A stretch of 64,000 nt of DNA from Eledone cirrhosa (Eukaryota), in NCBI GenBank assembly GCA_964016885.1, contig OZ024751.1:9114001-9178000 (forward strand). Direction: 5' to 3'. Below the pieces are notes generated by a model. The model was not told the origin of the DNA. It did no database searches and was given only the letters and a program-made list of their open reading frames with translations. Shown one piece after another: positions 9,297 through 58,560 of this stretch. How positions within the stretch are numbered: position 1 is the first letter of the stretch; every line of letters starts with the position of its first letter. Made by a program: the position numbers and the translations under genes.

Positions 9297-9297
<1 letters not shown>

Positions 9298-24579: not shown

Positions 24580-24645
24580 ATATATATATATGTTGATATA
24601 TATATATTTATATATATAAATATATATATATATTTATATATTTAT

Positions 24646-27056: not shown

Positions 27057-27519
27057 GTATTTACTCCACTAACCAGTTGAGTGCTTTATATCTGTTATAA
27101 ACTTCTTTAAGCTTTTTCGATCCCAAAAAATTAAATATAACCTCTGCATATATATAAATATATATATATATATATTTATGTATATATATTTGTAATGTTA
27201 TTACTCTAAGGTAAAATACCTTATTGAGTGCTTAGCAGCACATTTCGATTGCATTCTTTAGCATAGCTGCAGTGAGAACTTCGATTATGCTGTATTACTA
27301 TCTCTTAGACTTACTGATTAATTGATTAATTTACTTAGTGGTATCATGACAGTAGTGTAGGTCATATATTTATATCTATATATTTATATAGTATAACCGG
27401 TTTGTATTTCTTTTTCTTGATTTATTCTTAAATTGAGTATAGCAAACCTTATTGTCAGTAGTTAGTATTCCTTTCACCTTAGCGATTCTGGCCCATTACG
27501 ATTTGAACACCTATATGTA

Positions 27520-28600
<1,081 letters not shown>

Positions 28601-28609
28601 TATATATAT

Positions 28610-32203: not shown

Positions 32204-32560
32204 TAAATATATATATATATATAAATATATATATATATAAATAAATATAATGAATTAGTTTTGCGAGGTTTTTTATATGAAATCGTGTGTCGAATCGTGT
32301 GTATAAATAAAGAAATAAAGAAATAAATACACAAGCAGAATAACAACAAACACATATAAACACACACTAGTAAACTAAGATAGAATACATCAACCAATAC
32401 AAAGTCATCCAAACAAGAACACACATTAAAAAAAAACACTATACACACACGCAAACGCATGCGCAGAGAAGACAAAAAAATTAAAAACAAATAAATAAAT
32501 AAACAGACTAAATGAAGATGGCGTAAGCATGCAATGCAACGGGAGGAAACATAATAGCAC

Positions 32561-32598
32561 CACTGACGATGTTGCAGATGTGCAACGAAAGAACTTTG
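32561..32598 (+). ncRNA. Hammerhead motif, relative of the 35359 motif
   Basis: CA-CUGACGA-U-GUUGCA-GAUG-UGCAAC-GAAAG-AA-CUU^UG. Confidence 0.55.
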
Positions 32599-32804
32599 AT
32601 AGACTATATATATGTATTTGTGTCTATATTGTATCTGTATTTTTGACCGTTGGTCAGTCAATGGCAACATTGAGGACTGAATGAATTAAATAAACCGATA
32701 TAAAAGACACAGAAGCGAAAACCAAGCAAACAGTGAGTGTGTTCTGTTATTAATTCTGGCAATATTATTATACAAATATATTTATATACATATACATATA
32801 TTTA

Positions 32805-33048
32805 TATTCTTAAATTGAGTCTGGCAAACCATATTGTCCATAGTTACTGTTTTTCTCACCTTAGCAAATCTGGTCCCTTACGATTTGAAAACATCTATGT
32901 ATAGAACTGTGTTTATCTCTCTTTTATATTCAATTATAATATACGGCTCGGAAAAATCTCTTTCCCAGAGCTATTTTATAATGATAACTTGTTATCCCTT
33001 ATACCAAGCTCCCACTAGGTTGAACAATAACCTTATCGCACGGCACTA
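32805..33048 (+). mobile_element. Inverted copy of the PLE 5' terminal segment (31959-32203)
   Basis: The near-identical 71-aa pseudo-ORFs on opposite strands reflect the DNA inverted repeat. Confidence 0.85.
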
Positions 33049-33156
33049 ATCTGTCTGCATATATTATGCAACAATGCACAATTGGCTTATGCGGCTTCAT
33101 CAGCGGGTATCGCCTGATCAATAACCAATCGATCGACAGAATATATAAATATATAC

Positions 33157-34757: not shown

Positions 34758-35052
34758 ATGTGAATAAAGCCCTTATGTATAGCAAACCATGTCACTCTTC
34801 TTTCTTGATTTATTATTACTCCAAGTGTAAATTACGTAAAAATCACCGCGTACTCGCAGCATCACTATGGAAATGTCTTGTTGAGTCAAACTTAGCCAAG
34901 CGATAATACTATCCACTACTCGGAGTACCCTAACTGGACTACATCTAAGTGGACTACCTATAACAATAATGTGTTATCCCGTATATATATATATATTTCA
35001 TTTCTGAATTTGTTTAGCAAGATTCTTTATCTGAAAACGTGTGTTGAAACCG

Positions 35053-35654
<602 letters not shown>

Positions 35655-35967: not shown

Positions 35968-37695
35968 AAACAAACAAAACATTACTGATTTAAATCATCT
36001 CTATTATGCAGCGGCTAAAGTCACCACTCACTTATGTGGAGTGAAGATGAAAAAACAAAGAAATTCCCACAATAAATCTACTTGGCAAGAGAACATCAAT
36101 CGCCAAATAAACCTTCTCCGATCTGACATAGAAATGTTAACAAACTATAAAGTAGGTGAACATGTTAAACAAACTAAACTTAGAAAATTGAAAAAAAAGT
36201 ACAGTATAAAATCAACATGTGACATAGACATGCTGATAGAAATAATCAAGCAAAAAGTGTCGGCCAAATCTGCTCGTATAAGGCGCTTTGAAAAACGATC
36301 TAGATTCTATAAGGACAATAATATGTTCAAAAACAACCAAAGAAACTTCTACAGAAAAATTGGTAAGTCAACAATAACTGCTAAATCAATACCACCCAAG
36401 GAGGAAGTGCAAGAATTCTGGGAAAAGATCTGGGCCGAAGAAAAAGTTCATAACATACATGCCCCATGGATAGACAGACAAATGAAAGATACAGCTCACC
36501 TTGAGGAACAAACATGGGAAAATATAACAGTTGAACAGTTGCGCTTGGCTCTAAGAAAAACCAGCAAATGGAAATCCCCAGGAAAAGACAAAATACAAAA
36601 CTTTTGGATAGATGCCTTCACAGAGTCTCATGGGCTGTTAGCCCAACTTTACAATGAAATAGTTAAGGAGCCAGAAAAGATACCTTGATGGCTAGTTAAC
36701 GGCATTACATTCCTGCTTCCGAAGAATGATGAGACAAACAATCCCAAAAATTACAGACCGATAACTTGCTTGACCACAATGTATAACATTTTAACATCAG
36801 TCCTAAATGAATACACATATGACCACCTGATAACAAATGACCTATTTCCCATTGAGCAGAAAGGGTGTAAACGAGGCTCATATGGCTGTAAGGATCAGCT
36901 TCTGGTTAACAAAATGATACAAGATCAGTGTCTGCCAACAAAAAATTACCAAGCCAACATAATAAAAAATGGGTGCAGCCCATTATGCCGTGTATGCAAA
37001 AAACAACCAGAGACCATTGACCATATCATTTCAATGTGCAGTCCTATAGCTCAAACCGAATACCTAAACAGGCATGACAGAGCTGCACAATACATACATT
37101 GGATAATGTGTAAGCATTTTGACCTACCCCATCAAAAGAATTGGTGGGAGCATCAACCACTTCCCATACTTGAAAAAGATCACATCTCAATCTTGTGGAA
37201 CTTTAGCATCCAAACAGACCGAAAAATAGATGCAACCAGACCTGATATAATATTGAAAGACTTTCAAAAGAGGGTATGCCTGCTAATTGATATGTCTGTT
37301 CCAATAGACAAGAATGTATCTATAAAAACATTTGAAAAATTGAGCAAGTATAAGGACCTGGAGATAGGAATTGGAAAATTGTGGAAATTGAGAACTAAAA
37401 CAATACCAGTGGTTGTAGGCGCTCTGGGAATGATACATAAGGAGGCTAATGATTACTTATCGCAAATCCCAGGAAACCCACGTATAGGAGAAATACAAAA
37501 GATAGTACTAATGGGAACTGCCCATATACTAAGGAAGATTCTGTCAATATAAGTACATCACAAGTCTAAACACTAAAGATGCATGTGTGAATATGTATGT
37601 TCTTTCTTGAACATGGCGGACCTTGTTGTCTCTTCAGGTCACTGGTTGTGACTTGGTGATAACTCGTATGAACATAAAGCAAGATAAATGCAACT

Positions 37696-37696
<1 letters not shown>
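35968..37696 (+). mobile_element. R4/Dong-like family B, 5'-truncated and internally deleted copy
   Basis: Matches 39711-40663 joined to 41936-42710. Ends in (TAA)n at 37697-37765. Confidence 0.92.
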
Positions 37697-37763
<67 letters not shown>

Positions 37764-37765
<2 letters not shown>

Positions 37766-40700
37766 GGGAAGAAGACGCACGAGGTGGTAGAAGGTCACGA
37801 AATCGCTCCCGTAAGTTTTTGATTTTTAACATATTTAAATCAATTGTGAAATAACAATTCTTAGTACAAATGTTGCATAAACCACCGAATGAAGTTCCAT
37901 AAAATTTCGGATCCATATTATATTGTTATAACGCTCAAATATCCAATTTTGTATTATATATTTTGTATTCAAAAAAAGAAAATGGTTATAAATGGAAGAA
38001 AACACCCTCTGTCTACACTATATATAACAGCCAAATAACAGCAATTTCACCAACACCAGAAACTTGATACACCACCTATCCCATCACACTAAATATAACA
38101 GCCAGATAACGGCAATTTCACCACCACCACCACCATCAATCCCGGCATGATAATAATAATTACTATTATTATTGTCTCAAATTTTAACAAAATGTTTAAT
38201 TCCAATTTTACGGGAATATGTCAACACAATATATATTAAACATACGAACACAAACTCATAGATACTACATATCACAAAACCCAGTAACGACAACGCCACC
38301 GCCGCCACCACCCCATCCATCATCTTGCTACCACTATCCCATCGCCGCCGCCACCACTCCTTCATTGCTGCCACCACTATTCCCCTGTTAACTTGAGAGA
38401 GAAAGGGGAAGGTGGCGGTATCACTAGACAAGGGAGAGGCTAGCAAAATATATAAATAGATTGACTTAGTGACCTGGCCACCGGCCAAACGTCAACATCA
38501 ACAACTATGGGACTGCTGGCTCACCCCTTCCTCACCAACAATATAAAAAGCCCCGGCACCACCACCGACATAGCCAACAACAATAACAGGCAACTACAGC
38601 AAAAAGTATATTATATTATTGTAATGCACTGGGTGATTGCTGGCCTTGTGCCTGGAGTGGAGACAATTATTAATAATTTCATTCTTAAGCCACGCAATGC
38701 TCACATTAAGGACCACTCATGATAATAACAATTTAAAAAAAACAACAAAAAGAAAACCCCGTGACCAAGAAATACCGGGATAGCGGCCGGCGAGGAATAA
38801 CCGTGTCTCTAGGGGAGAACGACCCCTCTAGTCTTGGTTGACACTCATTCTAGAAGTGGTAACACGAAATGATTACCCCTTGGCGGATAAGGATAAAACG
38901 CAACAAAATAAAGTAAATGTCCAATGATAAAATCTCATACCGGATCGGCCGTCACCCGGGTAAAAAAGGGCCGCGTCCCTCAGAGAGGAACCAGACTGGG
39001 GTCGAAAAATCAGCTAATGGTTCAAACCTTCCCATCACTTCGGAGCTGGAGACCTCCCATAACCGGAATACTCCTACTGTTGGCCCTCCATGCTCACCAC
39101 CAAGAAATCCAAAGAAAAAGAGAGAAAAATGGTCAAGGGAAGATAATAAAGAAGTCATTGAGGCTTTCTACACTGCCATGTACTACCCATCAAATACATC
39201 GAATACAGAACAGACATATATCAACTGGAAAAAGAAACATCCCGAAAACAGAGGCTATATTGACAGTAACAAACTAGCCAATATACGAAGAAATATTGTA
39301 AGAAAAAAGTTACTAACTGATATAGAAATTGATCAGATCAAGCTATTAGCACAAAGTCAGCGAAGGGAAAATGAAACATGTGTCAGTGAAAACGAGGTAA
39401 ACTGTAACACTTCGAACCCCAGGGTTGGGGCGGAATGACTGGCAACAGAAAAAATTAAAGAAAGGATCGAAAAAGTGGAGGGAGTGCATGCTCAGGATGA
39501 AACTCCAAATGGAAATAATGAGATCGTAAATGATAAAGAAATGAATGAGAATGAACTTGCCAACTTGAAGGATGAAATTATGATCGAATGGATGAAAATG
39601 AAAGAATCTGATATGGGGCAACGAGAGACCCTCCCTAAGATCCAGAACTCCAAACAGAACCAAAAGATAATACACAAGACTAACATAATTCTAAAAAACA
39701 TTATCATCACAAACAAACTAAACATTACTGATTTAAATCATCTCTATTATGCATCGGCTAAAGTCACCACTCACTTATGTGGAGTGAAGATGAAAAAACA
39801 AAGGAATTCCCACAAGAAATCTACTTGGCAAGAGAACATCAATCGCCAAATAAACCTTCTCCGATCTGACATAGAAATGTTAACAAACTATAAAGTAGGT
39901 GAACATGTTAAACAAACTAAACTTAGAAAATTGAAAAAAAAGTACAGTATAAAATCAACATGTGACATAGACATGCTGATAGAAATAATCAAGCAAAAAG
40001 TGTCGGCCAAAGCTGCTCGTATAAGGCACTTTGAAAAACGATCTAGATTCTATAAGGACAATAATATGTTCAAAAACAACTAAAGAAACTTCTACAGAAA
40101 ATTTGGTAAGTCAACAATAACTGCTAAATCAATACCACCCAAGGAGGAAGTGCAAGAATTCTGGGAAAAGATCTGGGCCGAAGAAAAAGTTCATAACATA
40201 CATTCCCCATGGATAGACAGACAAATGAAAGAAACAGCTCACCTTGAGGAACAAATATGGGAAAATATAACAGTTGAACAGTTGCGCTTGGCTCTAAGAA
40301 AAACCAGCAAATGGAAATCCCCAGGAAAAGACAAAATACAAAACTTTTGGATAAATGCCTTCACAGAGTCTCATGAGCTGTTAGCCCAACTTTACAATGA
40401 AATAGTTACGGAGCCAGAAAAGATACCATCATGGCTAGTTAACGGCATTACATTCCTGCTTCCGAAGAATGATGAGACAAACAATCCCAAAAATTACAGA
40501 CCGATAACTTGCTTGACCACAATGTATAACATTTTAACATCAGTCCTAACTGAATACACATATGACCACCTGATAACAAATGACCTATTTCCCATTGAGC
40601 ATAAAGGGTGTAAACGAGGCTCATATGGCTGTAAGGATCAGCTTCTGGTTAACAAAATGATACTGGAAGATTGTCATAATAGACACAAAAATCTATCGAT

Positions 40701-42710
40701 TGCTTGGATAGATTATAAAAAAGCATTCGATAGTTTGCCACACAGTTGGATTGAAAAATGTTTAGAGATTTTCAAAATATCCCCCGTTGTCAGGAGGTTT
40801 TTGTCATTCAGTATGAAGACATGGAAATCGACACTCCTTTTGAATAGTGAAACAAAATCACTGGAAGCTGGAGAAGTTAATATTAATTGTGGAATTTTTC
40901 AGGGTGACTCTTTATCACCGCTTTTATTCTGCATCGCACTTATACCATTAAGTAAAATGCTCAATGAAACAAAACATGGATATAGAGTCTATGACAAAAC
41001 CATTAATCACCTGTTCTATATGGATGACCTGAAACTATTTGCAAAAAATGATGAACAATTGCAAGGGCTATTATCCACTGTGGGGCAGTTCAGTGATGAC
41101 ATTAAAATGGAGTTTGGACTAGATAAATGCGCCAAAGCAACGTTCACCAGAGGAAAGCTGCTGAAGAGTTCAGACTTTAATCTTGATCGGGGGAACGTGA
41201 TAAGAGAACTTGATCAATAAAAAACTTACAAATATCTAGGTGTTTGTGAAGGAGACGGAATAAAGCACTCGACAATGAGGGAAAGGATAAGGAAGGAATG
41301 TTACCGCAGAGTAAGAGCAATCTTAAGAACGGAATTGAATGAAAGGAATAGGATCGATGCCATAAACACGCTTGCCATACCAGTAGTAACCTACAGTTAC
41401 AATGTCATCAACTGGTCAAGCACAGAGATCCGTAGGCTCGATACAAAAATTCGAAAATTCTTAACCATGCACAGAATGCATCACCCTAATGCAGATATAG
41501 ATAGAATATATCTCCCTAGGAAATAAGGAGGACGTGGGTTAATCCAGTTAGACATTGCGTTGAAAACTGCAACAATTGGATTATCTACATATCTAAGGGA
41601 ATCACATGATTGGATGATCAAACTCGTTTTGAAACACGAAAGCATCAAAAGATCATATTCCATTACAGAAGATGCACAAAGATACAGTAATGGACTACAA
41701 ATTTCAGAAGTCCCATTTACTGCTGAAATGGAAAACACAGAAAAAGCAAAGCAGGTAAAAGTAACTGCAAAGAAAGAACTGCTACAGAAACTGGCTAAGA
41801 AATGGCAAGAAAAGCCTCTGTATGGAAAATACCCAGAGCGAGCTAACAATCCTGATGTTGACAAAACTTTAACCCATCAGTGGTTGGCATCCTCTGGACT
41901 GAAATCGGAGACTGAAGGACTGATTATATCAGCACAAGTTCAGTGTCTGCCAACAAAAAATTACCAAGCCAACATAATAAAAAATGGATGCAGCCCATTA
42001 TGCGTGTATGCAAAAAACAACCAGAGACCATTGACCATATAATTTCAATGTGCAGTCCTATAGCTCCAACCGAATACCTAAACAGGCATGACAGATTTAC
42101 ACAATACATACATTGGATAATGTGTAAGCATTTTGACCTGCCCCATCAAAAGAATTGGTGGGAGCATCAACCACCTCCCATACTTGAAAAAGATCACATC
42201 TCAATCTTGTGGAACTTTAGCATCCAAACAGACCGAAAAATAGATGCAAATAGACCTGATATAATATTGAAGGACTTTAAAAAGAGGGTATGCCTGCTAA
42301 TTGATATGTCTGTTCCAATAGACAAGAATGTATCTATAAAAACATTTGAAAAATTGAGCAAGTATAAGGACCTGGAGATAGAAATTGGAAAAATGTGGAA
42401 ATTGAGAACTAAAACAATACCAGTGGTTGTAGGCGCTCTGGGAATGATACCTAAGGGGTCTAATGATTACTTATCGCAGATCCCAGGAAACCCGCGTATA
42501 GGAGAAATACAAAAGATAGTACTAATGGGAACTGCCCATATACTAAAGAAGATTCTGTCAATATAAGTACATCACAAGTCTAAACACTAAAGATGCATGT
42601 GTGAGTATGTATGTTCTTCCTTGAACATGGCGGACCTTGTTGTCTCTTGAGGTCACTGGTTGTGGCTTGGTGATAACTCGTATGAACATAAAGCAAGATA
42701 AATGTAACTG
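37764..42710 (+). mobile_element. R4/Dong-like family B, full-length inactivated copy
   Basis: ~1.15 kb 5' leader, ORF remnants at 38917-42566, 3' UTR, and (TAA)n on both sides. Confidence 0.92.
38917..42566 (+). pseudogene. RT + CCHC + restriction-like endonuclease ORF with several stops and a frameshift
   Basis: [59 protein letters not shown] and RPDII..IDMSVP..K..KY. Confidence 0.92.
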
Positions 42711-42989
42711 TAATAATAATAATGCTTTCTTTATTAACCATAAGGGTTTACAAAATGTAGACTTTAAGGGCAGTACAGGACAATACAGGACGGTAGAAAT
42801 GGGCATTTCTACGTGTAAAAAAACAAAAACAGAGGATGTAACAAAAAAATAACAATGAAAAATTCCCCAATAGGGGGGAGACTTACGAGGGACATTTGTG
42901 GAGAAAGCCCATTAAAAAACCACAGTGACCCTGACCACCAGGGCAAGTGCCCTCTCCCAATTTACCACCTTTAATTTACAGACACATAG

Positions 42990-45900
42990 ACAGAGTAGGC
43001 CCATTCTCTCACCTATCTTTCAACAAAATGCTGGGAAGAGAGCACTTCCCTCTCTACCCTGATTTTCCTTTTCAAATGAATTTTGAAAAAGTTAATCAGG
43101 GCATCACCGAAGAGGTAAGTTCTCGTCTTCAGCTCTTTCAAACGTGTCCACCATACTATCTCTTTCGCCATGACCATCAGACAGATAAAAACTGCCTGCC
43201 CTTCCCGGCTAAAGGAAGAGGGCGCGGCAATCATCACGATGGACTTAGCTGATAGCTGGATCCGGCCTACACGTGACAGCAGGTGTTCGACATAAACGCA
43301 GAAATCAGCAATGCTCGGACACTGGACGAGTGCGTGCAGGACGGTTTCGCCGCCCTGCGCGCATCTCGGACATGCCCGGCTGACGGCACCTCGATGCCTG
43401 TAGAGTTTATCCCGAACTGGCAAAGCTCCTCGGTAGCACTGCCAGACCAGGGATTTCTGGAAATTATCCATAGGCTCCGGCCCGAAAGTTCTTCCGAAGA
43501 GATTGGCTAGTTGATTTTCATCGACGACTAGAGTTTCCCCAAGTGTGTCGTCAATTCCTCTCCCATAATCCTCTATAGAACGCCAAGGTGGAGTTTCCAC
43601 CGATCACATTGCCCAATTGGTCGAGGGCTGTGAGCGCCTGAAGACATTCCAGTCTCCCAGCGCTCCCTATCGGTCTTCGCTTGACCCAGGACTGCAGCTC
43701 CGTCAAGGAGACGAGCTGGGAAAAGACGCGTCTAGCAAACGGCGACCACACCTGAGCACCGTTGAGGAAGAGGTGGAGATGTCGTAGCCTGAGCGCGTGT
43801 CTGCGCATCATCAGCCACGGCATGCCCAGCCCTCCACGTAGCGGATGTTGACAGCAGATGGACCGCCTGACCATCGGAGCGCGTTCCTTCCACAAAAACG
43901 AAAGAGCAAACGCTCCAGCGCAGTCAGGCGGTGCTTAGGACAAGGTACGAGGGTCAGACGGTAGTAGATGAAGGACGCGATGTACGCGTTAGCCACCTCC
44001 GCTCGACTTTTAAGGGATAGTTTCCTCTCGGCCCATTTCTGGATGAGAGAAGCCACCCTGTCGTCACCTCGTCCCAGTTTTTGTCCGTCTGCAGGTCCGG
44101 ACCGAACCAGACCCCTACCAATTTAACCGGTCCGTCCGTCCAGCGTCCGACGACGCTGTTGGATGGCATGGACCTGCCTCTCCAGGTGCCGAGCTGCAGG
44201 CCCACTGACTTTTCCTGGTTGATCATTGCTCCTGTCACCGCTTCGTATTCTCTTAGTGTAGTGCCGATCGCCTTGATGTGTTTGGCGTTCGACACCACTA
44301 CGGTGACATCGTCCGCATCTTAGTTCGCGCGGGACCCCCCTCAACCTCTCCAGTTTGTGCACTAATGGCTCGAGAGTCAATACGTACAAGAGGGACGAGA
44401 GGGGACATCCTTGGCGGACCGAGCGCATGATGTTGAACGGTTCCGAAAGGTGACCGTTCACTCTCACCACAGAAGTCGCTGTGCATGGCAGGGATCCAGC
44501 TTCTGAAGACGGGCCCAAAGCCAGCCGACCTCAGGACTACCGCTAGGTAACGATGGTCGACCCTATCGAAAGCTTTCGACTGATCTAAATTGATCAAGGA
44601 CCCACTCCTTCAGGTTCACTAGCAACCCTCTCTACGATGTATCGCATGAGGTGGAGGTTGTCTTGGATGGATCTGTCGGGAATGGCGCATGCCTGCGCCT
44701 CTCCGACCAGACCACCAACGACAAGCGCCAACCCCTTTGCTAGCACCTTGGCCAAAATCTTGAACTCTGTGATTTTAGCAGAGTTATGGGCCTAAACTTA
44801 TATGTTATCCACCTTGTTCGGATCATTTTTCAGCAGCGCCAAAGCTCCTCGGCTCACAGAGCTGGGAATTCTCCCGTTCTGTTGCCAGTTGCAGTAGACG
44901 TCCGCCAAGAGGCCTCCGAACAATATGGCATCTGTACGTAAAGTTCATAGGGCAGACCATCCAAACCAGGCGATTTACCCCTTGTGCAGCCAGTTATTGC
45001 ATCCCGTACTTCAGCAGCTGTTATCAGCTTTTGGCAACACTCCGCCTCAGTGGCCGAGAGCCGCGGCAGTCCGTCGAGGTAGAAATTAAAGTCCATCCCT
45101 CGATCAGGCCCGACGCCGCCCCTGAACAGCTGTGCGAAGTGTCGCTGAAAAGTTTCACACATTTGCCCGGGATCGAGTAGCATTCCCCCGTCGTGGTCCA
45201 CCAAAGACCAGATCGTGGCTTTGTTGCCACGACGCGCCTCCGCCACTCGGGCCCATTGAACGGCTTTCGTCCCCTCGTGTCTGAGAGCACGCACCCTAGC
45301 TCTGACAACGTAGCCAGCGTGCTTTGCATTGAAGAATTGGTCAAGGGGCAATTTCGCCGCAAATACGTCGGTCGCGATGCCTTTGCTAAGCGCCTCGTCT
45401 AATGTTCTAACTAGTTTTCCCTCTGCTCTATTTTTCTCTATAGCTAAAGACTTACTAAACCTAATGGACTCTATTCTAATCGCTCTTTTCAGAGCAAACC
45501 ACCAGTTGTTGCTGGTCCCCGTCAACGCCCGCTTAACTAGTTCGCTAATCTGGTCTCTGTAGGCCTTGCGCGCTGGTAAAGACGCGTTTAGCTTCCAGTA
45601 GCCGGGTCCTCGTCTATGAAGCCTATCTAAGTCAAGCACACAGATCACGAATTTGTGGTCCGTGTAGCTGACTATCTTGAATTGTGGACAGCCTATGCTA
45701 GACCTATCTATTTCCCTACAAAATACTCTATCTAGATATGATCTGGATGACCCCATGCGATTTGTCCAAGACAATATTGGCACATTCGGGAAATCCAATC
45801 GGTACCTGTCAGACAGTACAAAACGCCTGAGCAGGTTGGTGAGGCTCTTGCACCCTTCTCCTCCCGATCCAGGACGGCTGGGAGATGCGTACACATCGTA

Positions 45901-46062
45901 GCCGCCGAATATCGGTGCAAAGACCCATGTTTCGGAGATTCTCGTCTCGCTGATGGCCACTACATCTAAGTTTAGTGACCTGAGGTCGTTGAGCAGGTGG
46001 CCCTGCTTCCATGACGACCCCAAGCCACGCACATTTATGCTGCCTATTCTGAGTGAGGTCAT
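42990..46062 (-). pseudogene. Tx1-like ORF2 (APE endonuclease, RT, C-terminal CCHC), fragmented
   Basis: SINVRGL, ISETR, SYLDRVF, YTDHK, GPGYWKLN, KSPGLDGLPYE, LDQSKAFDRVDH, SVRQGCPLS, GGLGMP and CPRCAQGGETVLHALVQC. Confidence 0.9.
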
Positions 46063-46139
46063 GTTGAAATGGAGGGGAAAAGATGAAAAAGACCACTTAC
46101 CTTACTTCTCGTAGAGGAAGGATGGTTTCTCCATCCCTT

Positions 46140-47969
46140 TCACTGCTTATGCGGAAGGATGTCCTTATAAATCCTCCTGGAGAGTGCTTGTCGGAAGTCT
46201 CCGATATCTTTGGGGAATTTTTGTGTTAGTGTCGTGTACGTTTTCTGTGTGATGCGAGTGATTTGTATGTGTGGAGGTAGAGTGAACGTTTGGGTTGTTG
46301 TGTAGTCTTTTTCTGTGATGCTGGTGTTGTGTTGGATGTAGTGTAATAATTGGTTGTTGTTCAAATATATTGCTGTGTAGTGTGTATCGTTTTGGTTGTT
46401 TTGTTTGCGTTTGTTGTGGGTTTGTTTCTGTTTCGCATTTTTGGTGACTTTTGTGGTGTTGGTGATGCTGGTGTGGATGGTGGCATATCTGCCCTAACTT
46501 TTGTGTTTGATAGTTTATTTGTTTTCCTCTGTATTTTGTTTTTGGAGGGGGAAGGAAGAGGATTTTTTGTTTTTTGGTTTCTTTTTCTTTTTTTGTTTTT
46601 TCCTGATACCGTTTCCCATTCCTCGACATCACAATCTGTCTCCAGTTGCGATAGGTCGGGGAGTGGAAAATCCTCTACAGGCGTTGGTTTTGGTTGTGGC
46701 GTGGTGGATGATGTAGGCGCTGGTGCTAGTTCTGGCGCGTTGGGTGGTGGTGGTTTTGGATTTGTTACTGTTGCTGGGCTTGTTGCTGTTACATTTGCTT
46801 CGGTTGTTGCTGCTACAGCTGTTGCTGCCATTTCTGTTGCTGGTGGTATTCATGGTTTAGTCACTAGGTAGGGTAAGAGAGGTGGTCTCAACCTTTTAGC
46901 CTGAGGGCAGAAAGCCCTTAGGTGGGTTCCTTCACCACAAACGACACACCTAGGCCTTCTGCCCTTGACGATTATGGTGAGGTAGCTGCCGCCAGTGAGG
47001 TCTATTACCTCTGGGATCTCCTCAATGCTTTTTTGGTCCGCTTGGATCAGGAGCTCCATCCCAGATCCGGACCAGTTCTCCTGCTTTTCCTTCGCTATTT
47101 CGATTATGTTGGTGTTGGCCTCGATGCCGGCGAGGACGGCAGCCATTAGCCATGGAATTTCGATGGCCGGTAGAACGTAGGTCACCCTGATCTTCACGAG
47201 TCTCTGGCCTCAATAGCTTGAGACGAGTATGAAGTCGTCACTTCTTAATGGGGCCATGGAGTGTTCTCTGGCTTCCTGTGGTGTTTCAAAGAACACGTCC
47301 AAGGTTCCATATTTCTACGCACGTCTGATGTAGGTTTTTTTTTGCCCACACATGTCCCAAAGCTTTTTGGATTTGGGACTCGGATGCCCGTTCCACTCGG
47401 CGCGATTTTATGTTAATCGTCCGATAAGACACGGTGGATAGGCGCCGATGCTCCATTTTATTAGGTGTGTGGGGAGGGGGGGGGAGGCTAAACCTGTACC
47501 CATCTTTCTTTACCATTATTTTGGCTTCTTCTAATTCCTCCTGAGTTACCTGTATTGCTTCGCACTTTTTTCCTACTCTGGCAAAAGACAGGGTTTTCTT
47601 ATTCTCATTGTTGCTGTTGTTGTTATCGTTATTTTTGTTATTGTTAATTTTAGTTTCAATTGTGGTGGTGGTGGTGGCGTCAGTGGTGTTCGGTTTGGAA
47701 GAGTTCATTTTGCGTGAATTCATTTCGATATCACGAGATAATTTATTTTTTTCTTTTGTTTCTGTTGTCGCTGTGGTGGAGGCTTCAACACCTGCAGTCA
47801 TTGGTAATGGCGGGAAATGAATGTCTGCTTGAGACAAATTTAGAATATTGCTACCGCTTATATTTTTAGTGTTGGCAAACGTAGTAATATTTACAATGGT
47901 GGTGTCGGTGTGAAGTGATAGTTTGTGAGGAAGGCTCTCAGCTACTGGGTTCAGCTGTGAGTCGGCCAT
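46140..47969 (-). pseudogene. Tx1-like ORF1 (gag-like), fragmented
   Basis: CX2CX4HX4C knuckle CVVCGEGTHLRAFC, a Pro/Thr-rich segment and basic WETVSGKNKKRKR. Lies upstream of ORF2. Confidence 0.75.
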
Positions 47970-48173
47970 GATTTTTAAAAGAATTTTTTTTTTTTTTTAT
48001 ATTTATTAAAGTTTAAATTTTGGGCTCTTTTTGAGTGTCCTATTCAGAAAACAATGTATGTGTACTTATATACAGTTAGCAATAAAAATTTTCCATAAAT
48101 GGCAATTTTAAACAACTGAAAATAACAAACCTTAGCGGAGCTCACGATAATACGATTTACTACATAGGTCACC

Positions 48174-48234
<61 letters not shown>
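48174..48234. repeat. (TAA)n spacer between head-to-head Tx1 and R4/Dong A2
   Basis: Pure AAT repeat. Confidence 0.95.
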
Positions 48235-51200
48235 GTAAAGGGAAGAAGACGCACGAGGTGACGGAGGTCATGAAATCGCTCCCGTAAGTTTTGAATTTTT
48301 AACATATTTAAATCATTTGTGAAATAACAACTCTTAGTACAAATGCTACGTAAAGCACCCGGCTTGAGCCCCAAAAAATTCGGACCCAAAATATATTGTT
48401 ATAAGGCTCAAATATTCAAATATTCAACTTTGTATTGTACACTGTATATCCAAAAAAGAAAATGGCTATAAATGGAAGAAGAAGAACCCCCACCCCCTCC
48501 TCTCCTCTGGCTACACTATATAGGACAGCTAAACTCACCAACACCAGAAACTAGATACACCACCCACCCCATCATCTGTGTACACTAAACACAACAGCCA
48601 GATAACGACATTTTCACCTTCACCGCCACCGCTCACTACGGCCACCATTACCACCACTATCCCATCACCGCCGCCACCACCCCTTGACTCCTTCACTACT
48701 GCCACCGCTACAGCACCATCACTACAGTAATACGGTCACATCACCGCCACCACTGCCTCGGTATCGACATCACCACCGCCACTGTCTCAGTATCGCTACC
48801 GCCGCCAGTCTCCACTTCTCCCTGCTGGCTGTTACTTCCACATTATAGAATTCCTACTACTAACAAAGAGGAAGGCATCAACATATATAGATAGACTCAA
48901 AAGAAAAAAGAAAAAACAAACAACAAAACCAAAGCAGCACAGCAACAACAGCAAAAACGAGAAAAACAAACAGAGAAAAACAAAAACAAAAAAAGAAACC
49001 CAAAAAACGTAAAGAAAATAAGAATGAAGAGAGAAGCAGGCGGACGGACAGAGAAGAGGGGGGAAAAAGTAAAACTTAAAAAACAAAAACTAAGTCAGAC
49101 ATTCGAACACTACATTACAATGAAACTTATGCTTATTCATTTTTGGGGCCCTTTCTGCCTGTGTGTTTGTTTGTTTATGTGTGTTCGTATACAGCGTGGT
49201 GATAATGCCACACAAGGGCCAAGTGGGATGGCGGACCCACAGATGGCTATGTAACTATACATTCGCCAATCCTCGATAAGAGTGTTTAAATATCGAACAT
49301 AAACAGTTCGAATAACGGTGAAATGGAGACTAGAACGTCATGTGACAGACTCTCACCCAACAGGTGCCCCCTGGCTCAGCAGCAGGAACCTGACTGTCAA
49401 CCAAATACTGCTGATGTTGGAGGAAGAAGAAGAAGGAAAGGGGCCAGAACCAACTGGACGAAAGAATTGAATAGAACTGTTATGCAATGTTACCTGAAAA
49501 GTAACCCCAAGGAGAGGGGCTACAGGAGACGGATGCATAACATCTGGAACGAGATTGGTTTATTTAAATTAGATGAACAAAAATTGGCCGGGCAGGATCG
49601 GGTAATAAGAACTAATGGGTGGATAAGCGAGCTGGAACTGGAGGAACTGAGCAGAGAGAATGGCTTGGAGATGGCGGGTGCAGTATGCCAGACAAGCGAG
49701 CCGGTGGGAAATGAAGGTGAGGAGGTCCTGAGAACGGAGGAACCACCCGAAGCAGACAATGATCTGAATACTGAGATAAATAATACCTGGAACAGAGATA
49801 CGGCCACTGAGGAGATGAATGCTGACGGGCTAGGAGAAGATTCGGTTGACATCCTAAATTTAGTGGTAGATGAATTGAACAATGATAGTGGGAGACCTAT
49901 GAACCTAAGATTTGTAGACAGGAAAAAGTTAAAAGAAACAACAGCTAAGTTAAACAAAGTCATCCCATACCTTGAGGCGAGGAGCCTTCACCAGTGCAAC
50001 AATATCCTCAAAGCAACAGCAAATACGGTGAGGAAACTACTTGGTATAAAAGCGAGAGGAAACAACAGACAAGAAAGAGCAGAGCCGTGGTGGAAGAAGC
50101 GACTGAGTGGGCAAATCGGGGAAATGAGAAATGACATAGGAAAGCTTGAGTCACTACTGAATGGGACACTAAAAAACATAGGCACTAAAAATAGACTGAA
50201 AATAAAATACAAAACTAGGAGTAAAAAGCTAAATATTATCATAGAGGAATTGAAGCAACGCATTGTAGCAAAGAGTGCAAAAATCAGGCGATACGAGAAC
50301 AGAGTCAGTCAGTATAAACAGAACCGCATGTTCGACAACAACCAGAAGATGCTGTTTGGACAGCTTGAGGGGAAAGAAAGAGGCAACGTCTTGATCCCTG
50401 GGGCGGAACAAACTAAAACATTCTGGAGAGGAATATGGGAGCAGGATGTTAGACACAATGCCCAGGCAGGGTGGATTGAGACAGTACAGAGGGAGATCGG
50501 TGAGCAGGCACAACAACAGACTGATTTGAGTATCACAGTTGAAACTCTTAAGGGGCAAGCCAAAAAACTAACCAACTGGAAATCACCAGGCCCAGATGGT
50601 GTGCAGGGGTATTGGATTAAACATTTAACATCCCTCCACCCGAAGCTGACGGCCATGTTCAATGACTGCTTGGTGTCGGGTGAGGTGCCAGAGTGGTTGA
50701 CAAAAGGTACCACAGTTCTGATAATGAAAGACCGAATCAAGGGTAATGATGTTACCAACTATAGACCTATCACATGTCTGCCCGTAATGTGGAAACTGTT
50801 GACGAGCATTGTGTCTGAGGAAATCTACCATCACCTCCACACAAACAACCTGTTACCGGACGAACAGAAAGGATGCCGAAAGAAGTCACGTGGTACAAAG
50901 GACCAGTTGCTTATTGATAAGATGGTAATGGGGAATTGCACGAGGAGACACACTGATCTTGCCATGGGATGGATAGACTACAGAAAGGCATTTGACATGG
51001 TGCCTCATTCCTGGATCACCAAAAGCCTGGAGATCTTCAGGGTGGCAGATAACATCAGACAGTTGCTAGGCAGGAGTATGGGGTCCTGGGAGACAGAGCT
51101 GACATCAACTGGAGTATCCTTGGGAAGCGTGAAGATCAAGAGAGGTATCTTCCAGGGAGATAGCCTGTCCCCTCTGTTGTTTGTCCTTGCCCTGATGCCC

Positions 51201-52789
51201 TTGACCATTATGCTGCGAAAAGTGAGAGCAGGATACAAGTTGGGAAGGGGAGAGCTTACCATCAATCACCTCCTCTTCATGGACGATCTTAAGCTCTTCG
51301 GGAAAAGTGAGAAGGAGTTGGATGTGCTTGTTGACACTGTCCGTATTTTCAGCAGTGATATATGTATGCAGTTTGGTATTGGTAAATGTGGAGTCATTGT
51401 GATGAAGAGGGGTAGGTTGAGCAGAAGTAACGGGATCCAGATACCAACAGGTGAGATGATAAAGGAAATTGACTCTGAGGAAGGATACAAGTATTTGGGC
51501 GTTCTGGAGGCTGATGGCATAAAGAACAAAAAAATGAAGGAATTGTTAAGAACTGAATACATTCGGAGAGTAAGGAGCGTATTGAAGTCACATCTGAACA
51601 GCAGAAATGCCATAAGCGCAGTAAATTCCCGAGCTGTGTCTATTATTAGGTACAGTGCGGGAATTCTGAGATGGAATGTTGCTGAACAAAAAGAAATGGA
51701 TAGGAAGACTAGGAAGCTATTGACCATCTACAACATGTTCCACAAGAGGAGTGATGTCGATAGACTCTACCTAAGGAGATCTGAGGGTGGAAGAGGTCTT
51801 ATCAGCATAGAGGACTGTGTTCAGATGGAGAAAAACAACCTATACAAATACGTGACCTATAGTAAGGAGCCAATGCGCAGAACTGTACTGAAGGAGGGGA
51901 CAGTAGGCCAGGGGATGTCCAAGGAGGAAATAACATCAAGGAGGAAGAGCAGCCTTAAGGGAAAATCCCTTCATAGTACCTTCTTTGAGAAAACTGAATT
52001 TAGAGATCCACAGACATGGAACTGGTTGAGAAGAGGAGACCTCAAAAAGGCTACAGAAGGAATGCTAATGGCTGCGCAGGAGCAGGCCCTCAAAACGAAG
52101 TGGTTGAAGCACCATATCTACAAGGAGGAGGCTAGCCCACTGTGCAGGATCTGTGGAGAGAGAGAGGAGACTGTGGCTCACATTGTGTCCGAGTGTAAAC
52201 ACCTAGCCCAGACCCACTATAAGGGCTGGAGACACGATGTGATGGGCAGGGTGATCCACTGGCACCTGTGCAAAGTAAACAATCTACCACATTCTGAGAA
52301 ATGGTATGAGCATAGGCCAGAGGCGGTGATGGAGAACAATCAGGTGAAGGTGCTGTGGGATTTTAGGATACAGACGGACAAAAAACTGGAACACAATAGA
52401 CCTGACCTGGTGGTTGTGGACAAAGAAAAAAGATCGTGCCTGATTGTGGATGTGGCCTGCCCGTTCGACACGAGAGTGCAAGAGAAGGAGAGGGAGAAAA
52501 TTAACCGATACCAGGACCTAAAGTGGGAGGTGAAAAGGATCTGGAACTGCCATGAAGTCAAAGTGATCCCGATTGTCATAGGCGCACTGGGGACTATCTC
52601 CAAAAGTTTCCAGGGATGGTTAAAGAAAATCGGCCCCTTCACGCTTTTTGGAACGCTTCAAAAGGCATGCTTGCTTGGAACAGCAAGAACCCTCCGATAC
52701 GTCCTGAATATCTGAGGCTGCAGGTAGTGGCTTGATATTCAATCCAACGGACTTTCCAGTTAACCAACATCAATGACTGAGATTCAAGG
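48235..52789 (+). mobile_element. R4/Dong-like family A copy 2, full length with intact ORF
   Basis: 1.09 kb leader, 1130-aa ORF, short 3' UTR, with TAA-type repeats on both sides. Confidence 0.95.
49323..52715 (+). CDS. Non-LTR retrotransposon protein: reverse transcriptase + zinc knuckle + restriction-like endonuclease (R4/Dong-like)
   Basis: Uninterrupted 1130 aa with [69 protein letters not shown] and RPDLVVVD..VDVACP..K..RY. Confidence 0.95.
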   Translation: METRTSCDRLSPNRCPLAQQQEPDCQPNTADVGGRRRRKGARTNWTKELNRTVMQCYLKSNPKERGYRRRMHNIWNEIGLFKLDEQKLAGQDRVIRTNGWISELELEELSRENGLEMAGAVCQTSEPVGNEGEEVLRTEEPPEADNDLNTEINNTWNRDTATEEMNADGLGEDSVDILNLVVDELNNDSGRPMNLRFVDRKKLKETTAKLNKVIPYLEARSLHQCNNILKATANTVRKLLGIKARGNNRQERAEPWWKKRLSGQIGEMRNDIGKLESLLNGTLKNIGTKNRLKIKYKTRSKKLNIIIEELKQRIVAKSAKIRRYENRVSQYKQNRMFDNNQKMLFGQLEGKERGNVLIPGAEQTKTFWRGIWEQDVRHNAQAGWIETVQREIGEQAQQQTDLSITVETLKGQAKKLTNWKSPGPDGVQGYWIKHLTSLHPKLTAMFNDCLVSGEVPEWLTKGTTVLIMKDRIKGNDVTNYRPITCLPVMWKLLTSIVSEEIYHHLHTNNLLPDEQKGCRKKSRGTKDQLLIDKMVMGNCTRRHTDLAMGWIDYRKAFDMVPHSWITKSLEIFRVADNIRQLLGRSMGSWETELTSTGVSLGSVKIKRGIFQGDSLSPLLFVLALMPLTIMLRKVRAGYKLGRGELTINHLLFMDDLKLFGKSEKELDVLVDTVRIFSSDICMQFGIGKCGVIVMKRGRLSRSNGIQIPTGEMIKEIDSEEGYKYLGVLEADGIKNKKMKELLRTEYIRRVRSVLKSHLNSRNAISAVNSRAVSIIRYSAGILRWNVAEQKEMDRKTRKLLTIYNMFHKRSDVDRLYLRRSEGGRGLISIEDCVQMEKNNLYKYVTYSKEPMRRTVLKEGTVGQGMSKEEITSRRKSSLKGKSLHSTFFEKTEFRDPQTWNWLRRGDLKKATEGMLMAAQEQALKTKWLKHHIYKEEASPLCRICGEREETVAHIVSECKHLAQTHYKGWRHDVMGRVIHWHLCKVNNLPHSEKWYEHRPEAVMENNQVKVLWDFRIQTDKKLEHNRPDLVVVDKEKRSCLIVDVACPFDTRVQEKEREKINRYQDLKWEVKRIWNCHEVKVIPIVIGALGTISKSFQGWLKKIGPFTLFGTLQKACLLGTARTLRYVLNI

Positions 52790-52820
52790 AATAACAATAA
52801 CAATAATAATAATAATAATT

Positions 52821-55800
52821 GCTGAAATAAATAATACCTGGAACATAATACGGCCATTGAGGAAATGAATGCTGAGGGGCTAGAACAAGATTTGGTTGAT
52901 ATCCTAAACTTAGTGGTAGATGAAATGAACAAAGATAATGGGAAACCTATGAACCTAAGATTTGTAGACATGAAAAAGTTAAAAGAAACAACAGCTAAGG
53001 TAAACAAAGTCATCCCATACCTTGAGGCGAGGAACCTTAACCAGTGCAACAATATTCTCAAAGCAACAGGAAATGCGGTGAATAAATTACTTGGCATAAA
53101 AGCGAGAGGAAAAAACAAACAAGAAAGATCAGAACCTTGGTGGAAGAAACGACTGAATGGTCAAATCAGGGAAATGAGAAATGACATTGGAAAGCTTGAG
53201 TCCCTACTGAATGGGACACTACAAAACACAGAGACTAAAAATAGACTGGAAATAAAGTACAAAACTAGGAGGAAAAAGCTAAATATTATCATAGAGGAAC
53301 TGAAGCAACGCATTGTAACAAAGAGCACAAAGATTAGGCGATACGAGAGCAGAGTCAGTCAGTATAGACAGAACCGCATGTTTGACAACAGCCAGAAGAT
53401 GTTGTTTGTACAGCTTGAATGGAAAGAAAGAGACAACGACTTGATCCCTGAGGCGGAACAAACTAAGACATTCTGGAGAGGAATATGGGAGCAGGGTGTT
53501 GAACATAATGATCAGGCAGTGTGGATTGAGACAGTACAAAAAGAGATTAGTGAACAGGCACACCAACAAACTGATTTGAATATCACAGTTGAAACTCTTA
53601 AGGGGCTGGCCAGAAAACTAACCAACTGGAAATCACCAGGTCCAGATGGTGTGGAGGGGTATTGGATTAGAATTATAACATCCCTCCACCCGAACTGACA
53701 ACCATGTTCAATGACTGCTTGGTGAGGTACCAGAGTGGTTGACAAAAGGTACCACAGTTCTGGTAATGAAATACCGAACCAAGGGTAATGATGTTAGCAA
53801 CTATAGACCTATCACATGTCTGTCCGTAATGTGGAAACTGTTGACAAGCATTATGTCTGAGGAAATCTACCATCAGCTCCACACAAACAACTTGTTACCG
53901 GACGAACAGAAGGGATGCCGAAAGAAGTCCCGTGGTACAAAGGACCAGTTACTTATTGATAAGATGGTAATGAGGAATTGCAGGAGGAGACACACTGGTC
54001 TTGCCATGGGATGGATAGACTACAAAAAGGCATTCGACATGGTACCTCATTCTTGGATAACCAAAAGAGATCTTCGGGGTGACAGATAACATCAGACAGT
54101 TGTTCAGCAAAAGTATGAAGTCCTGGAAAACCGAGTTAACATCGGGCAGAGAATCCTTAGGAGGCGTGAGGATCAAGAGAGGTGTCTTCCAGGGAGATAG
54201 TCTGTCCCCTCTGTTGTTTGTCCTTGCCCTGATCCCCCTGATCATTATACTGCGAAAAGTGAGAGCAGGATACAAGTTGGGGAAGGGAGAGCTTACGATC
54301 AATCACCTTCTCTTCATGGACACTCTAAGCTCTTCAGGAAGAGTGAGAAGGAGATGGATGTACTTGTTGACACTGTCCGTATTTACAGGAATGATATACG
54401 TATGAAATTTGGTATTAGTAAGTGTGGAGTCCTTGTGATGAAGAGGGGCAAATTGAGCAGAAGCAAGGGAATCCAGGTACCAACAAGTGAGATGATAAAG
54501 GAAATTGATGCTGAAAAGGGATACAATTATTTAGGTGTTCTGGAGGCTGATGACATCAAGAAAAAAAAATGAAGGAATTGATAAGATCTGAATACAATCG
54601 GAGGAGAGTAAGGAGCGTACGAATGTCACATCTGAACAGTAGGAATGCCGTGCAGTAAATTCCCGATCTGAGTCTATTATTAGGTAGAGTGCGGGAATTC
54701 TGAGATGGAATGTTGCTGAACAAAAAGAAATGGGTAGGAAGACTAGGAAGGTATCGACTACCTACAACATGTTCCACAAGAGGAGTGATGTCGATAGACT
54801 CTACTTAAGGAGATCTGAAGTTGGAAGAGGTCTTATCAGCATAGAGGACTGTGTTCATATGGAGAAAAACAACCTACACAAATACGTGACTTATAGTAGG
54901 GAGCCAATGCTCAGAGTTGTACTGAAGGAGAGGACAATAGACCAAGGGATGTCCAAGGAGGAAATAACAACCAGGAGAAAGAGCAACATTCATGAAAAAT
55001 CCCTTCATAGTACCTTCTTTGAGAAAACTGAATTTAGAGATCCACAGACATGGAACTGGTTTAAAAGAGGAGACCTTAAAAAGACTACAGAAGGAATGCT
55101 AATGGCTGCGTATGAGCAGGCCCTCAAAACGAAGTGGCTGAAACACCATATTTACAAGGAGGAGGTTATCCCACTGTGTAGGATCTGTGGAGAGAGGAGG
55201 AGACTGTGGCTCACATTGTATCCGAGTGTAAAGACCTAGCCCAGACTCACCACAAAGGCTGGAGACATGATGTGATGGGCAGGGTAATCCACAGGTAGCT
55301 ATGCAAAGTAAACAATTTACCACATTCTGAGAAGTGGTATGAGCATAAGCCAGAGACGGTGATGGAAAACGATCAGGTGAAGGTGCTGTGGGATTTTAGG
55401 ATACAGGCGGACAAGCAACTGGAACACAATAGACCTGACCTGGTGATTTTGGACAAAGAAAAAAGATCGCGCCTGATTGTGGATGTGGCCTGCCCATTCG
55501 ACACGAGAGTGCAAGAGAAGGAGAGGGGGAAAATTAACCGATACTAGGAGTTAAAGTGGGAGGTAAAAAGTATTTGGAACTGCCATGAAGTCAAAGTGGT
55601 CCCGATTGTCATAGGCGCAATATGTAATATCTCAAAGAGTTTCCAAGGATGGTTAAAGAAAATTGGTCCCGCCCCGCTTTTTGGAACACTTCAAAAGGCA
55701 TGCTTGCTGGGAACAGCAAGAACCCTCCGATACGTCCTGAATATCTGAGGCTGCAGGTAGTGGCTTGATATTCATTTCAACAAACTTTCCAGTTAAATAA

Positions 55801-55823
55801 CATCAATGACTGAGACTCAAAGA
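52821..55823 (+). mobile_element. R4/Dong-like family A copy 3, 5'-truncated, more diverged, frameshifted
   Basis: Collinear with A2 from ~49771 through the 3' UTR, with multiple indels and stops. Confidence 0.92.
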
Positions 55824-55875
55824 ACAATAATAACAAAAATAATTTAAAAAAGAAAATAATAATAATAATAATAAT

Positions 55876-56824
55876 ACTTTCTTTATTAACCACAAAGGTT
55901 TACATAAAGTAGACATTAAGGACAGTACAGGACAATACAGGACGGTACAAATGGGAATTTCTGCGTGTAAAAAACAAAAACAGAGGATGTAACAAAAAAT
56001 AACAATGAAAAATTCCCCAATACGGGGGAGACTTACGAGGGACATTTGTGGAGAAAGCCCATTAAAAGGTCACAGTGACCCTGACCACCAGGGAAAGTGC
56101 CCTCTTCCAGTTTTCCACCTTCAATTTACAGGCATATACTCAGAGTAGGTTCATTCACTCGGGCCATTCTTGCCTCTCTCACTCATCTTTCAACAAAATG
56201 CTGGGAAGAGAACACTTCCCTCTCAACCCTGATTTTCCTTTTCAAATTTCATTTGAAAAAGTTAATCAGGGCATTACCGAAGAGGTAAGTGCTTGTCTTC
56301 AGCCCTTTCAAACGTGTCCATCATACTATCTCTTTCGCTATGGCCACCAGACAGATAAAAACTGCCTGCACTTCCAGGCTAAAGGAAGAGGGCAGGGTAA
56401 TCTTCACGATGGACTCAGCTGATAGCTGGATCCGGCCTACACGCGACAGCAGGGGTTCGACATAAACCCACAAGTCAGCAATGCTCGGACACTGGACGAG
56501 TGCGTGCAGGACGGTTCGTCGCCCTGCGCGCATCTTGGACAAGCCCGGTTGACGGCATTTCCATGCCTGTAGAGTTTATCCCAAACTGGCAAAGCTCCTC
56601 GGTAACACTGCCTGGCCAGGGATTTCTGGAAATTGTCCATAGGCGCTGGCCCGAAAGTTCTTCCGAAGAGATTGGCTAGTTGATTTTCGTCGACGCCTAG
56701 TGTTTCCCCAAGTACGTCGTCGCTCTTCCCCTCCACTAATCCTCTATAGAACGCCAAGGTGGAGTTTCCAACGATCATATTGGCCGACTGGTCAAGGGCA
56801 GTAAACGTCTGAAGACATTCCAGT
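55876..56824 (-). mobile_element. 5'-truncated copy of the Tx1-like element
   Basis: Collinear with 42724-43654. TAA repeats lie at 55855-55875 and 56832-56855. Confidence 0.9.
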
Positions 56825-58560
56825 GATCATCATAATAATAATAATAATAATAATACAACTGCCGGCACCACAACTATTATTGCTCCTTCATCTACTACTT
56901 CATTTTCTTCTACTACCGCCACCATCACTACCACTAATATCACCACCACCATCACGATTACTATTGCTACTACTACTACTTCTGCTACTGCAGCAGTTTT
57001 TCCTTCACACTTCTAAAAATGTTAAACTATGTTGATCTTCATCGCATTTCTTCTGCATTTTATTGTTTTTGTTCTACTTTATTATTGTTCATTGTTCTTC
57101 TTCGTATTGCTTCTCTTTTTTTTCTTATTTGTATGCTTCTTCTTATTATTGTTGTTGTAATTGTTACTGTTATTATTATTGTGCCTAAATCAGAAACGAC
57201 TATTGATATTAGTGTTGTTGTTGTTGTTGTTGTTGTTCTCTATCGCCTTTGTATTTTCTACCAGACACTATAATCTGCTGACCATGTCCTTCGAGGTCTT
57301 TCTTGTATGTTATCTCTTTTATGAAGTGCATTCAGTTTCACTTTCAAGATAGGAGAATTTCACAGAACATTTTTCCTTTCTTTCACTTTCCCCTTGTATC
57401 TGCGGGCTTCTGGTTTCCATTAATACCAAACAACATTATTTCCAGTTAAGTGGAATCTTTGCAACAACAAAAACAACAACAATAAAAAATAATGAAAAGG
57501 AAAGAAAAAAAACGGCACCATTTAGCTTTTTCTTTCAAAAATTTACATGTTATTGTTACGATTTTCCTTTTCCTGCTGCATTCAGATAACGCTTTTATAA
57601 CACACCTCATTTCACAATAATTCTGTTAGTTTAGTCCAGTTAAACAATTCTTTCTCAGTATATCTCTCCTCATTCACTACATTTCTTACAATTCGGTTTT
57701 CTTTTATTCTTTAGACATGGTTATTAAAAATGATTTTCTTTTCTTCTACCCATTTTCACGTACTTCCTCAGACTAATATTTTGTACGTTTTACTGAATTC
57801 ATCGTTTGTTCGCCATTGTTCATTAACTTTATATTTGAATGTTTCTATTCTCAAATTAGTATTTTGATAATTTTCCATGAGAAAACAGTTGAATTCATTG
57901 AAAGGAAACTCGACGTGAAGAGAAACCCAGAGAGCTCGAATATTCAATGCCGCTTTGTATGTTGCACTAATGACATTCAAAATAAAATAACATATCTTGC
58001 CATTTTATCTCCTTAAATTTAGGCAATATCATGTTTTAACCCCCAGTATAATAAATGCGATCCAATAACGCTAGATGTTCATAAGAAATAAACACCATTT
58101 AAAAACAGAGTCGAAAATAGGGTGTAATATAGCCATAGAAAAGGTGCTGAAAGGTTCCTGGCTAAATGGTATGGCGAAAGGGTAGAGCTCTTAGATTTAC
58201 GGGAGAGGTTGGATCACTGTAAGAAGTGTGTGAATCTTAGAGGGGAATATTTTGAATAAAATCATAATTAACTGATCCTCCTGTATTTTCTTTTAAACCA
58301 AAACCAGGAGATTTTCAGTTCCGCCTCCTATAGCGAACAGAATTCTTGTAGTTAGGACACGTATCATCTTAAATCTGTTTGGTTTGGACTGATCTTTGAT
58401 TAAACAGCAGTATCAATAATAAAACAATTAACTCAAATATTTTTAATATAACCCAAATATAAAAAAAAACATATAATGCATAAGTTTTCGTTTTAGCAGT
58501 CGCACAAATTATTTGATATGGCTTATGCGTGTGTATATATATATACATATATATATATAA

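Follow-up and report, generated by a model that had tools for sequence, protein, structure and literature searches.

Several retrotransposon families of the Tx1 clade insert into microsatellites: Kibi into (TC)n, Koshi into (TTC)n and the crocodilian Tx1-1_Crp group into (TTCC)n or (TTTC)n (PMC4494074, PMC3812793). Dong, of the R4 clade, is specific for (TAA)n in most insects, molluscs and cnidarians (PMC7998251, PMC3812793). Dong is listed in PMC3812793 among the elements with an apurinic/apyrimidinic-type endonuclease (APE), whereas PMC7998251 and the motifs described below point to a restriction-like endonuclease. We analysed a stretch of 64,000 nucleotides from Eledone cirrhosa (contig OZ024751.1, positions 9,114,001 to 9,178,000; hereafter the window) that carries a long interspersed element (LINE) at 42724-48173 on the minus strand and a second, 5'-truncated copy of the same family. 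Like Kibi, Koshi and Tx1-1_Crp, this element is a LINE with an APE and a reverse transcriptase (RT), scores closest to Tx1-type proteins and lies inside a simple repeat on both sides. In contrast to them, its apparent target is the AT-only (TAA)n and not a pyrimidine-rich repeat of the TC type; both copies are flanked by (TAA)n rather than by TC, TTC, TTCC or TTTC repeats. With Dong it shares the target repeat. However, Dong has one open reading frame (ORF), a C-terminal restriction-like nuclease and its sense strand on the TAA strand, whereas the window element has two ORFs and an APE at the N-terminus, and its sense strand is the TTA strand. We consider it fairly probable that the window element belongs, as a dead copy, to a Tx1-like LINE family of octopod type that inserts into (TAA)n by preference.

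The two copies and their flanks are arranged as follows.

42711-42723, plus strand: (TAA)4T tract from the 3' end of the neighbouring Dong-like copy DongB2 to the 3' end of the Tx1-like element
42724-48173, minus strand: Tx1-like APE LINE, both ends kept, with an internal deletion and frameshifts; a dead copy
48174-48234, plus strand: (TAA)n tract, 61 nt of (AAT)n, from the Tx1-like element's 5' end to the head of DongA1
55855-55876, plus strand: (TAA)n tract, 22 nt of (AAT)n, from the 3' end of DongA2 to the truncated copy
55877-56824, minus strand: 5'-truncated copy of the same family, its last 0.95 kb
56825-56855, plus strand: seven junction bases (56825-56831) and (ATA)8 (56832-56855) at the truncated 5' end

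The original prediction had reported TAA repeats at both ends of both copies, and the coordinates of all four tracts bear this out. The A at 55876, next to the truncated copy, is ambiguous. The tract at its 5' side passes into a degenerate trinucleotide stretch and has no Dong beside it. In both copies the sense strand coincides with the TTA strand, and at each end of the long copy the ATT|ATT junction is in phase. The two copies differ at 86 of 926 aligned columns (9.3%), the differences are spread evenly over codon positions (13/15/17), and the 5' ends and neighbours differ, so the two are independent insertions, followed by neutral decay. At least four perfect TTA-type units precede 260 of the 115,166 junction positions in the window (both strands). 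Under uniform insertion, the chance of TAA at two of two 5' flanks is about 5e-6, an estimate restricted to the 5' sides, which are the informative ones.

Other copies were sought in public sequencing reads, where four of the 11 listed runs were aligned to 42660-48190. Each run carries less than half of the words of the reference stretch, so the runs may come from relatives or may reflect the age of the copy. The results given here are the best-supported rows, namely 15 of 2983 joints, 12 of 465 rows of a further table and 24 of 9563 loose ends. Among these, run X9 (raw restriction-site-associated DNA (RAD) reads) held three truncated 5' ends joined to TAA. The joint from 43898 to 42711 was found in 237 reads with one start and 56 letters on the short side, which means that the read runs on into the 3' end of another copy, in tandem. 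The joints from 43413 to 42711 and from 42746 to 48173 were found in 124 and 126 reads, respectively. Counting the truncated copy of the window as well, four independent truncated ends have TAA on the 5' side. In run X1, which has another species label, a 443-nt contig of depth 160 lay on 47773-48190 and spanned the head and 17 nt of AAT. On the 3' side, 5371 reads of X9 fitted up to 42711 and then continued into a TAA-like consensus (agreement 0.64), and 7890 reads covered 42756. A further 1400 reads with about 80 starts linked two TAA tracts, that is, at least 30 nt of TAA. Left out of account were 24,850 loose ends of X9 at 45338; they are AT-rich, lie at an AATT site, agree poorly (0.35) and are probably ligation chimeras. 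The ambiguous row from 48190 to 48173 was also excluded. Kojima's criterion for a target-specific family is that more than 20% of flanks share the target (PMC4494074); the read data show the recurrence of TAA-flanked ends and not the fraction of flanks.

The proposal that TAA is the target is supported by both window copies, by the further read junctions and by the 5' tract that is free of Dong. It does not extend to strict specificity or to the APE as the cause. We have good confidence that the preference for (TAA)n is real, and regard it as an evenly balanced question whether endonuclease recognition is its main cause.

The long copy had been described as full-length. Both ends are indeed present, but the interior has broken ORFs and an internal deletion in the APE. 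Its parts are as follows, all on the minus strand.

47970-48173: 5' untranslated region (UTR), 204 nt
46361-47969: ORF1, split over several frames, with a low-complexity P/T/K-rich tail; the lower bound is approximate
46907-46948: putative gag-like zinc knuckle of ORF1, C-x2-C-x4-H-x4-C, read by eye (no match in a Pfam search)
45650-46062: APE endonuclease remnant, placed by alignment to intact relatives
43007-45648: remainder of ORF2, with tether, RT and C-terminal domain, placed by comparison with the related protein P0001
43319-43372: C-terminal CCHC zinc finger (Pfam zf-RVT, E 8.6e-7)
42724-42740: 3' terminus, AATAAA and a further 6 nt leading into (ATT)n; poly(A) tail absent

Both ORF1 and ORF2 are disrupted. 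ORF2 begins at 46062 and matches P0001 with 71% identity over 884 residues, with nine frameshifts and one stop. The first and last motifs of the APE survive in the remnant, but a stretch of about 85-90 residues that includes GD(F/W)N is gone near 45860. Among the best rows of run X4, 31 contigs diverge from the reference at 45858, where other copies differ, and by eye their letters beyond this point read as the missing GVAVLF-type strand, so the deletion belongs to the window copy. In the 5' UTR nothing matched Rfam up to E=1, and a stable fold was likewise absent. An Rfam search of 35000-58000 found no ribozyme or small nuclear RNA at the element ends and only sub-threshold matches elsewhere, and the folds of the element ends were no better than shuffles (z 1.13, -0.20, -0.49).

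Members of the Tx1 clade have a separate upstream ORF1 with a gag-like zinc knuckle, as does the window element with the knuckle read by eye. Consistent with this clade, the family has an APE (a remnant here, and Pfam Exo_endo_phos in the relatives), an RT and a C-terminal CCHC, the last two recognised in P0001 and in the window. In a phmmer search, P0001 scored 289-296 bits to three fish Tx1-type proteins (P0285, P0250 'YTX2' and P0010; we take P0285 to be from the Kojima-Fujiwara set), 209 bits to a turtle Tx1-type protein and 174 bits to human L1 ORF2p. Compared with Dong/R4, the element has an APE and two ORFs rather than a single ORF with a C-terminal nuclease, and scored 42-53 bits to DongA1. 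A quick RT tree was built from 56 of 57 rows (P0251 was left out as short), with no L1 sequence and an open backbone. In this tree the window copy groups with five relatives in a separate 6-row clade (support of 100 in the Shimodaira-Hasegawa-like approximate likelihood ratio test), which lies outside an 11-row clade holding the fish and turtle proteins; none of the rows carries the label Kibi or Koshi. The scores thus favour Tx1-type proteins over human L1, in line with the Tx1 assignment in the original prediction, but the tree does not join the window family to the fish Tx1 elements. As the family lies outside the fish clade in this tree, the microsatellite habit probably arose separately.

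The closest named relative is an Argonauta hians protein (68% to P0001), which points to an octopod as the likely host. The nearest relatives with DNA context have 42% identity to P0001; they were found in a single GTDB record with the title Arenicella, at 40 overlapping loci where the copies stand head to tail. The lack of a microsatellite between these copies argues against an inherited (ATT)n tail. These loci (L010-L049; record CAXXMW01, 'uncultured Arenicella sp.') lie on contigs of up to 94 kb. Their Tx1-like LINEs are intact and fall into two families (92-94% to P0040 and P0030), in arrays that have a period of about 6.5 kb and lack a spacer of microsatellite or TTAGG(G) type. In L042, truncated copies begin 17 nt after the AATAAA of the preceding copy. 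We take this to be mis-binned DNA of an animal rather than a bacterium, with what look like LINE arrays that target themselves. P0001 itself was sought in viral and GTDB contigs and was not found, and a gapped 3'-end motif had no match in the viral contigs. A DNA motif scan of metagenome contigs gave five matches, all attributable to chance, and the element was absent. Alignment to the viral contigs found four distant LINE-type RTs of 27-33% identity (L006-L009; IMG/VR, three contigs of 186-211 kb).

The element lies in a nest of RT elements at 35.9-56.9 kb that carry a C-terminal CCHC finger and a PD-x-D motif, and which we read as Dong/R4 on the basis of these motifs. A single ORF with RT, CCHC and PD-(D/E) motif, and (TAA)n flanks, are the Dong/R4 features found in these neighbours. 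Those that adjoin the Tx1-like copies, and one related junction, are listed here.

37697-37765, plus strand: junction of Dong tail, (TAA)23 and Dong head with no Tx1-like element; the same type of site, unoccupied
37766-42710, plus strand: DongB2, Dong/R4-like LINE with a putative restriction-like endonuclease, head and tail present, several stops
48235-52801, plus strand: DongA1, Dong/R4-like LINE with an open frame of 1141 codons (RT, CCHC, PD-x-D nuclease motif)
52820-55854, plus strand: DongA2, a Dong copy truncated at the 5' end and older, with 9.5% divergence from DongA1

The junction at 37697-37765 was rejected as a true empty allele, being a parallel Dong-Dong junction and no paralogue of the Tx1-like site. 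Altogether the window has five Dong/R4-like copies of two families (9295-13795 on the minus strand, 35968-37696, 37766-42710, 48235-52801 and 52820-55854). The A and B families have a similar 5' head, and DongA1, with its open frame, may be recent. Compared with DongB2, DongB1 lacks about 1.27 kb internally, and its 5' end (35968) is the sole Dong end with no TAA.

These neighbours, the main confounder, were absent from the original prediction. TAA stands at nine of the ten ends of the five Dong copies. Both Tx1-like copies are antisense and tail to tail with a Dong, whose end lies 13 nt and 22 nt away, respectively. On its other side the long copy meets a Dong head, so that three of the four TAA tracts double as Dong ends. 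The Dongs flanking the long copy are 2.7% and 1.9-3.3% from their sisters; the Tx1-like copies are 9.3% apart and the long one has nine frameshifts. With this low divergence and the open frame of DongA1, the Dongs look younger than the long copy, suggesting that the TAA tract was there first and that the Dongs around it probably entered TAA already flanking the Tx1-like element. This age argument presumes that both Tx1-like copies diverged about equally.

How could insertion into (TAA)n come about? The endonuclease would nick the AAT strand at the T-A step, 5'-AAT^AAT-3'. By analogy with target-primed reverse transcription, the nick would then prime reverse transcription, with the AAT strand cut after AAT as the primer. 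In both window copies AATAAA lies 6 nt from (ATT)n, and with the signal so close to the junction the transcript probably reaches into the target repeat. RNA is processed 10-30 nt after AATAAA, which here would fall inside the repeat and give an RNA with a few AUU units. A transcript running a few AUU units into the target before processing could pair with the primer strand, and this pairing would reinforce the choice of site. Since insertion leaves TAA on both sides, later Tx1-like copies and Dongs would collect in the same tract; the Dong sense strand is on the TAA strand and that of the Tx1-like element on the TTA strand, which would account for the tail-to-tail nest.

Several points weigh against a preference for (TAA)n set by the element itself. 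The counts are two of two for the window and, at 3' ends, about 5371 of 7890 reads from a single RAD run, which do not amount to an unbiased count of 5' flanks. The bulk of the 1400 reads, which join 48190 to 42711, may show a long 3' tract only, which is uninformative on tail versus target. Joints are reported only where the sequence on each side is in the reference, which by design reveals TAA flanks and hides all others. Each truncated junction probably stems from a single RAD locus, and 43898 is also a point where diverged copies stop aligning. The endonuclease of the window copy is deleted, and its specificity is therefore unreadable from this copy. The relatives of 42% identity have no TAA tract of at least four units in 526 kb, which indicates that TAA targeting is not common to that sister lineage, where no microsatellite tail was seen. 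Finally, both window copies adjoin Dong tails, so a preference for Dong ends would also fit.

The alternative that survives best places the specificity in the RNA, and we regard it as rather unlikely as the main account. Here a relaxed, L1-like endonuclease would cut at AT-rich T-A steps, and the (AUU)n 3' end of the RNA, its own or read through, would pick TAA by pairing. The lack of poly(A), the AATAAA close to (ATT)n in both copies and the very common 3' TAA in the reads are consistent with this. The L1 endonuclease cuts 5'-TTTT/AA-3' promiscuously (PMC1950540), and the nick proposed here is at a T-A step as well. In contrast, the relatives have no microsatellite tail, and one Tx1-clade endonuclease, that of Xenopus Tx1L, which targets the Tx1D transposon, is sequence-specific in vitro (PMC1950540). 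The window family shares the APE scaffold with Tx1L and human L1, neither of which is described as using (TAA)n in the available text of PMC1950540. Guidance by the tail is compatible with a preference of the element for (TAA)n and does not exclude it, and the contributions of nuclease and RNA are inseparable in this data.

We consider it improbable that there is no targeting at all. In that case the element would make its own (ATT)n tail and Dongs would land in it, and the tracts on the 5' side would be chance neighbours, or an effect of biased survival, in a nest rich in microsatellites. Points in its favour are the tail-to-tail arrangement with younger Dongs, as expected of a Dong that inserts into a Tx1 tail, the bias to TAA built into the read analysis and the small number of window copies (two); but this leaves unexplained the TAA at the four independent truncated 5' ends, the head contig of X1 and the chance estimate. 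Least probable, and very much so, is that the target is the 3' junction of Dong, a LINE parasitising a LINE with TAA incidental: although two of two copies are tail to tail with Dong at 13 and 22 nt, other Tx1 families target transposons (PMC4494074) and the loose-end consensus before 42711 resembles a degenerate DongA tail, the two Dongs come from separate families whose 3' ends are unlike, the Tx1-like element looks older than DongB2 and DongA1 on either side of it, the DongB tail included in the reference was not followed by the 5371 reads, and one junction sets Tx1 beside Tx1.

Returning to a family that itself prefers (TAA)n, the finding is likely a new DNA target of a known habit. An annotation of Octopus vulgaris counts 80 families of L1-Tx1, of which 13 were recently active, and 51 of Dong-R4 (PMC13282606), and the window family may be among the former. 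Neither the main text nor the examined supplement of PMC13282606 contains the word 'target', and the available text of PMC9115989 makes no mention of Tx1. No TAA-targeting Tx1 element appeared in the papers searched, a search that did not extend to Repbase, Dfam, Kojima and Fujiwara 2004 or the target-listing Fig. 3 of PMC4494074, so that a prior annotation is possible. More tentatively, and with somewhat less than even confidence, we propose an undescribed octopod Tx1 lineage with a (TAA)n-specific APE that arose independently of Kibi and Koshi from self-stacking relatives. It would share the niche of Dong on the opposite strand, with two unrelated nuclease folds converging on one microsatellite and building mixed LINE arrays. 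If a (TAA)n preference holds, it would add a target to the short list for APE-type retrotransposon endonucleases and help to explain the nested LINE piles of octopod genomes. It would also provide a natural pair of an APE and a restriction-like nuclease on one repeat in the same genome, on which the roles of nuclease and RNA tail can be tested. It implies no new mechanism, as microsatellite-specific Tx1 elements and TAA-specific LINEs are both known already.

Elsewhere in the window, 35256-35352 forms a near-perfect hairpin with sub-threshold microRNA-family scores, and is probably the inverted ends of a small DNA element. The segments 31959-33049 and 27512-28612 have inverted arms of 299 nt (90%) and 263 nt (96%), resembling miniature inverted-repeat transposable elements, and 27758-28057 recurs at 34982-35281. 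On the minus strand, two putative fragments were recognised by eye, one at 19998-20618 that resembles what we take to be a CR1/L2-type RT tail and one at 24121-24633 that resembles what is presumably a GIY-YIG (Penelope-like) nuclease.

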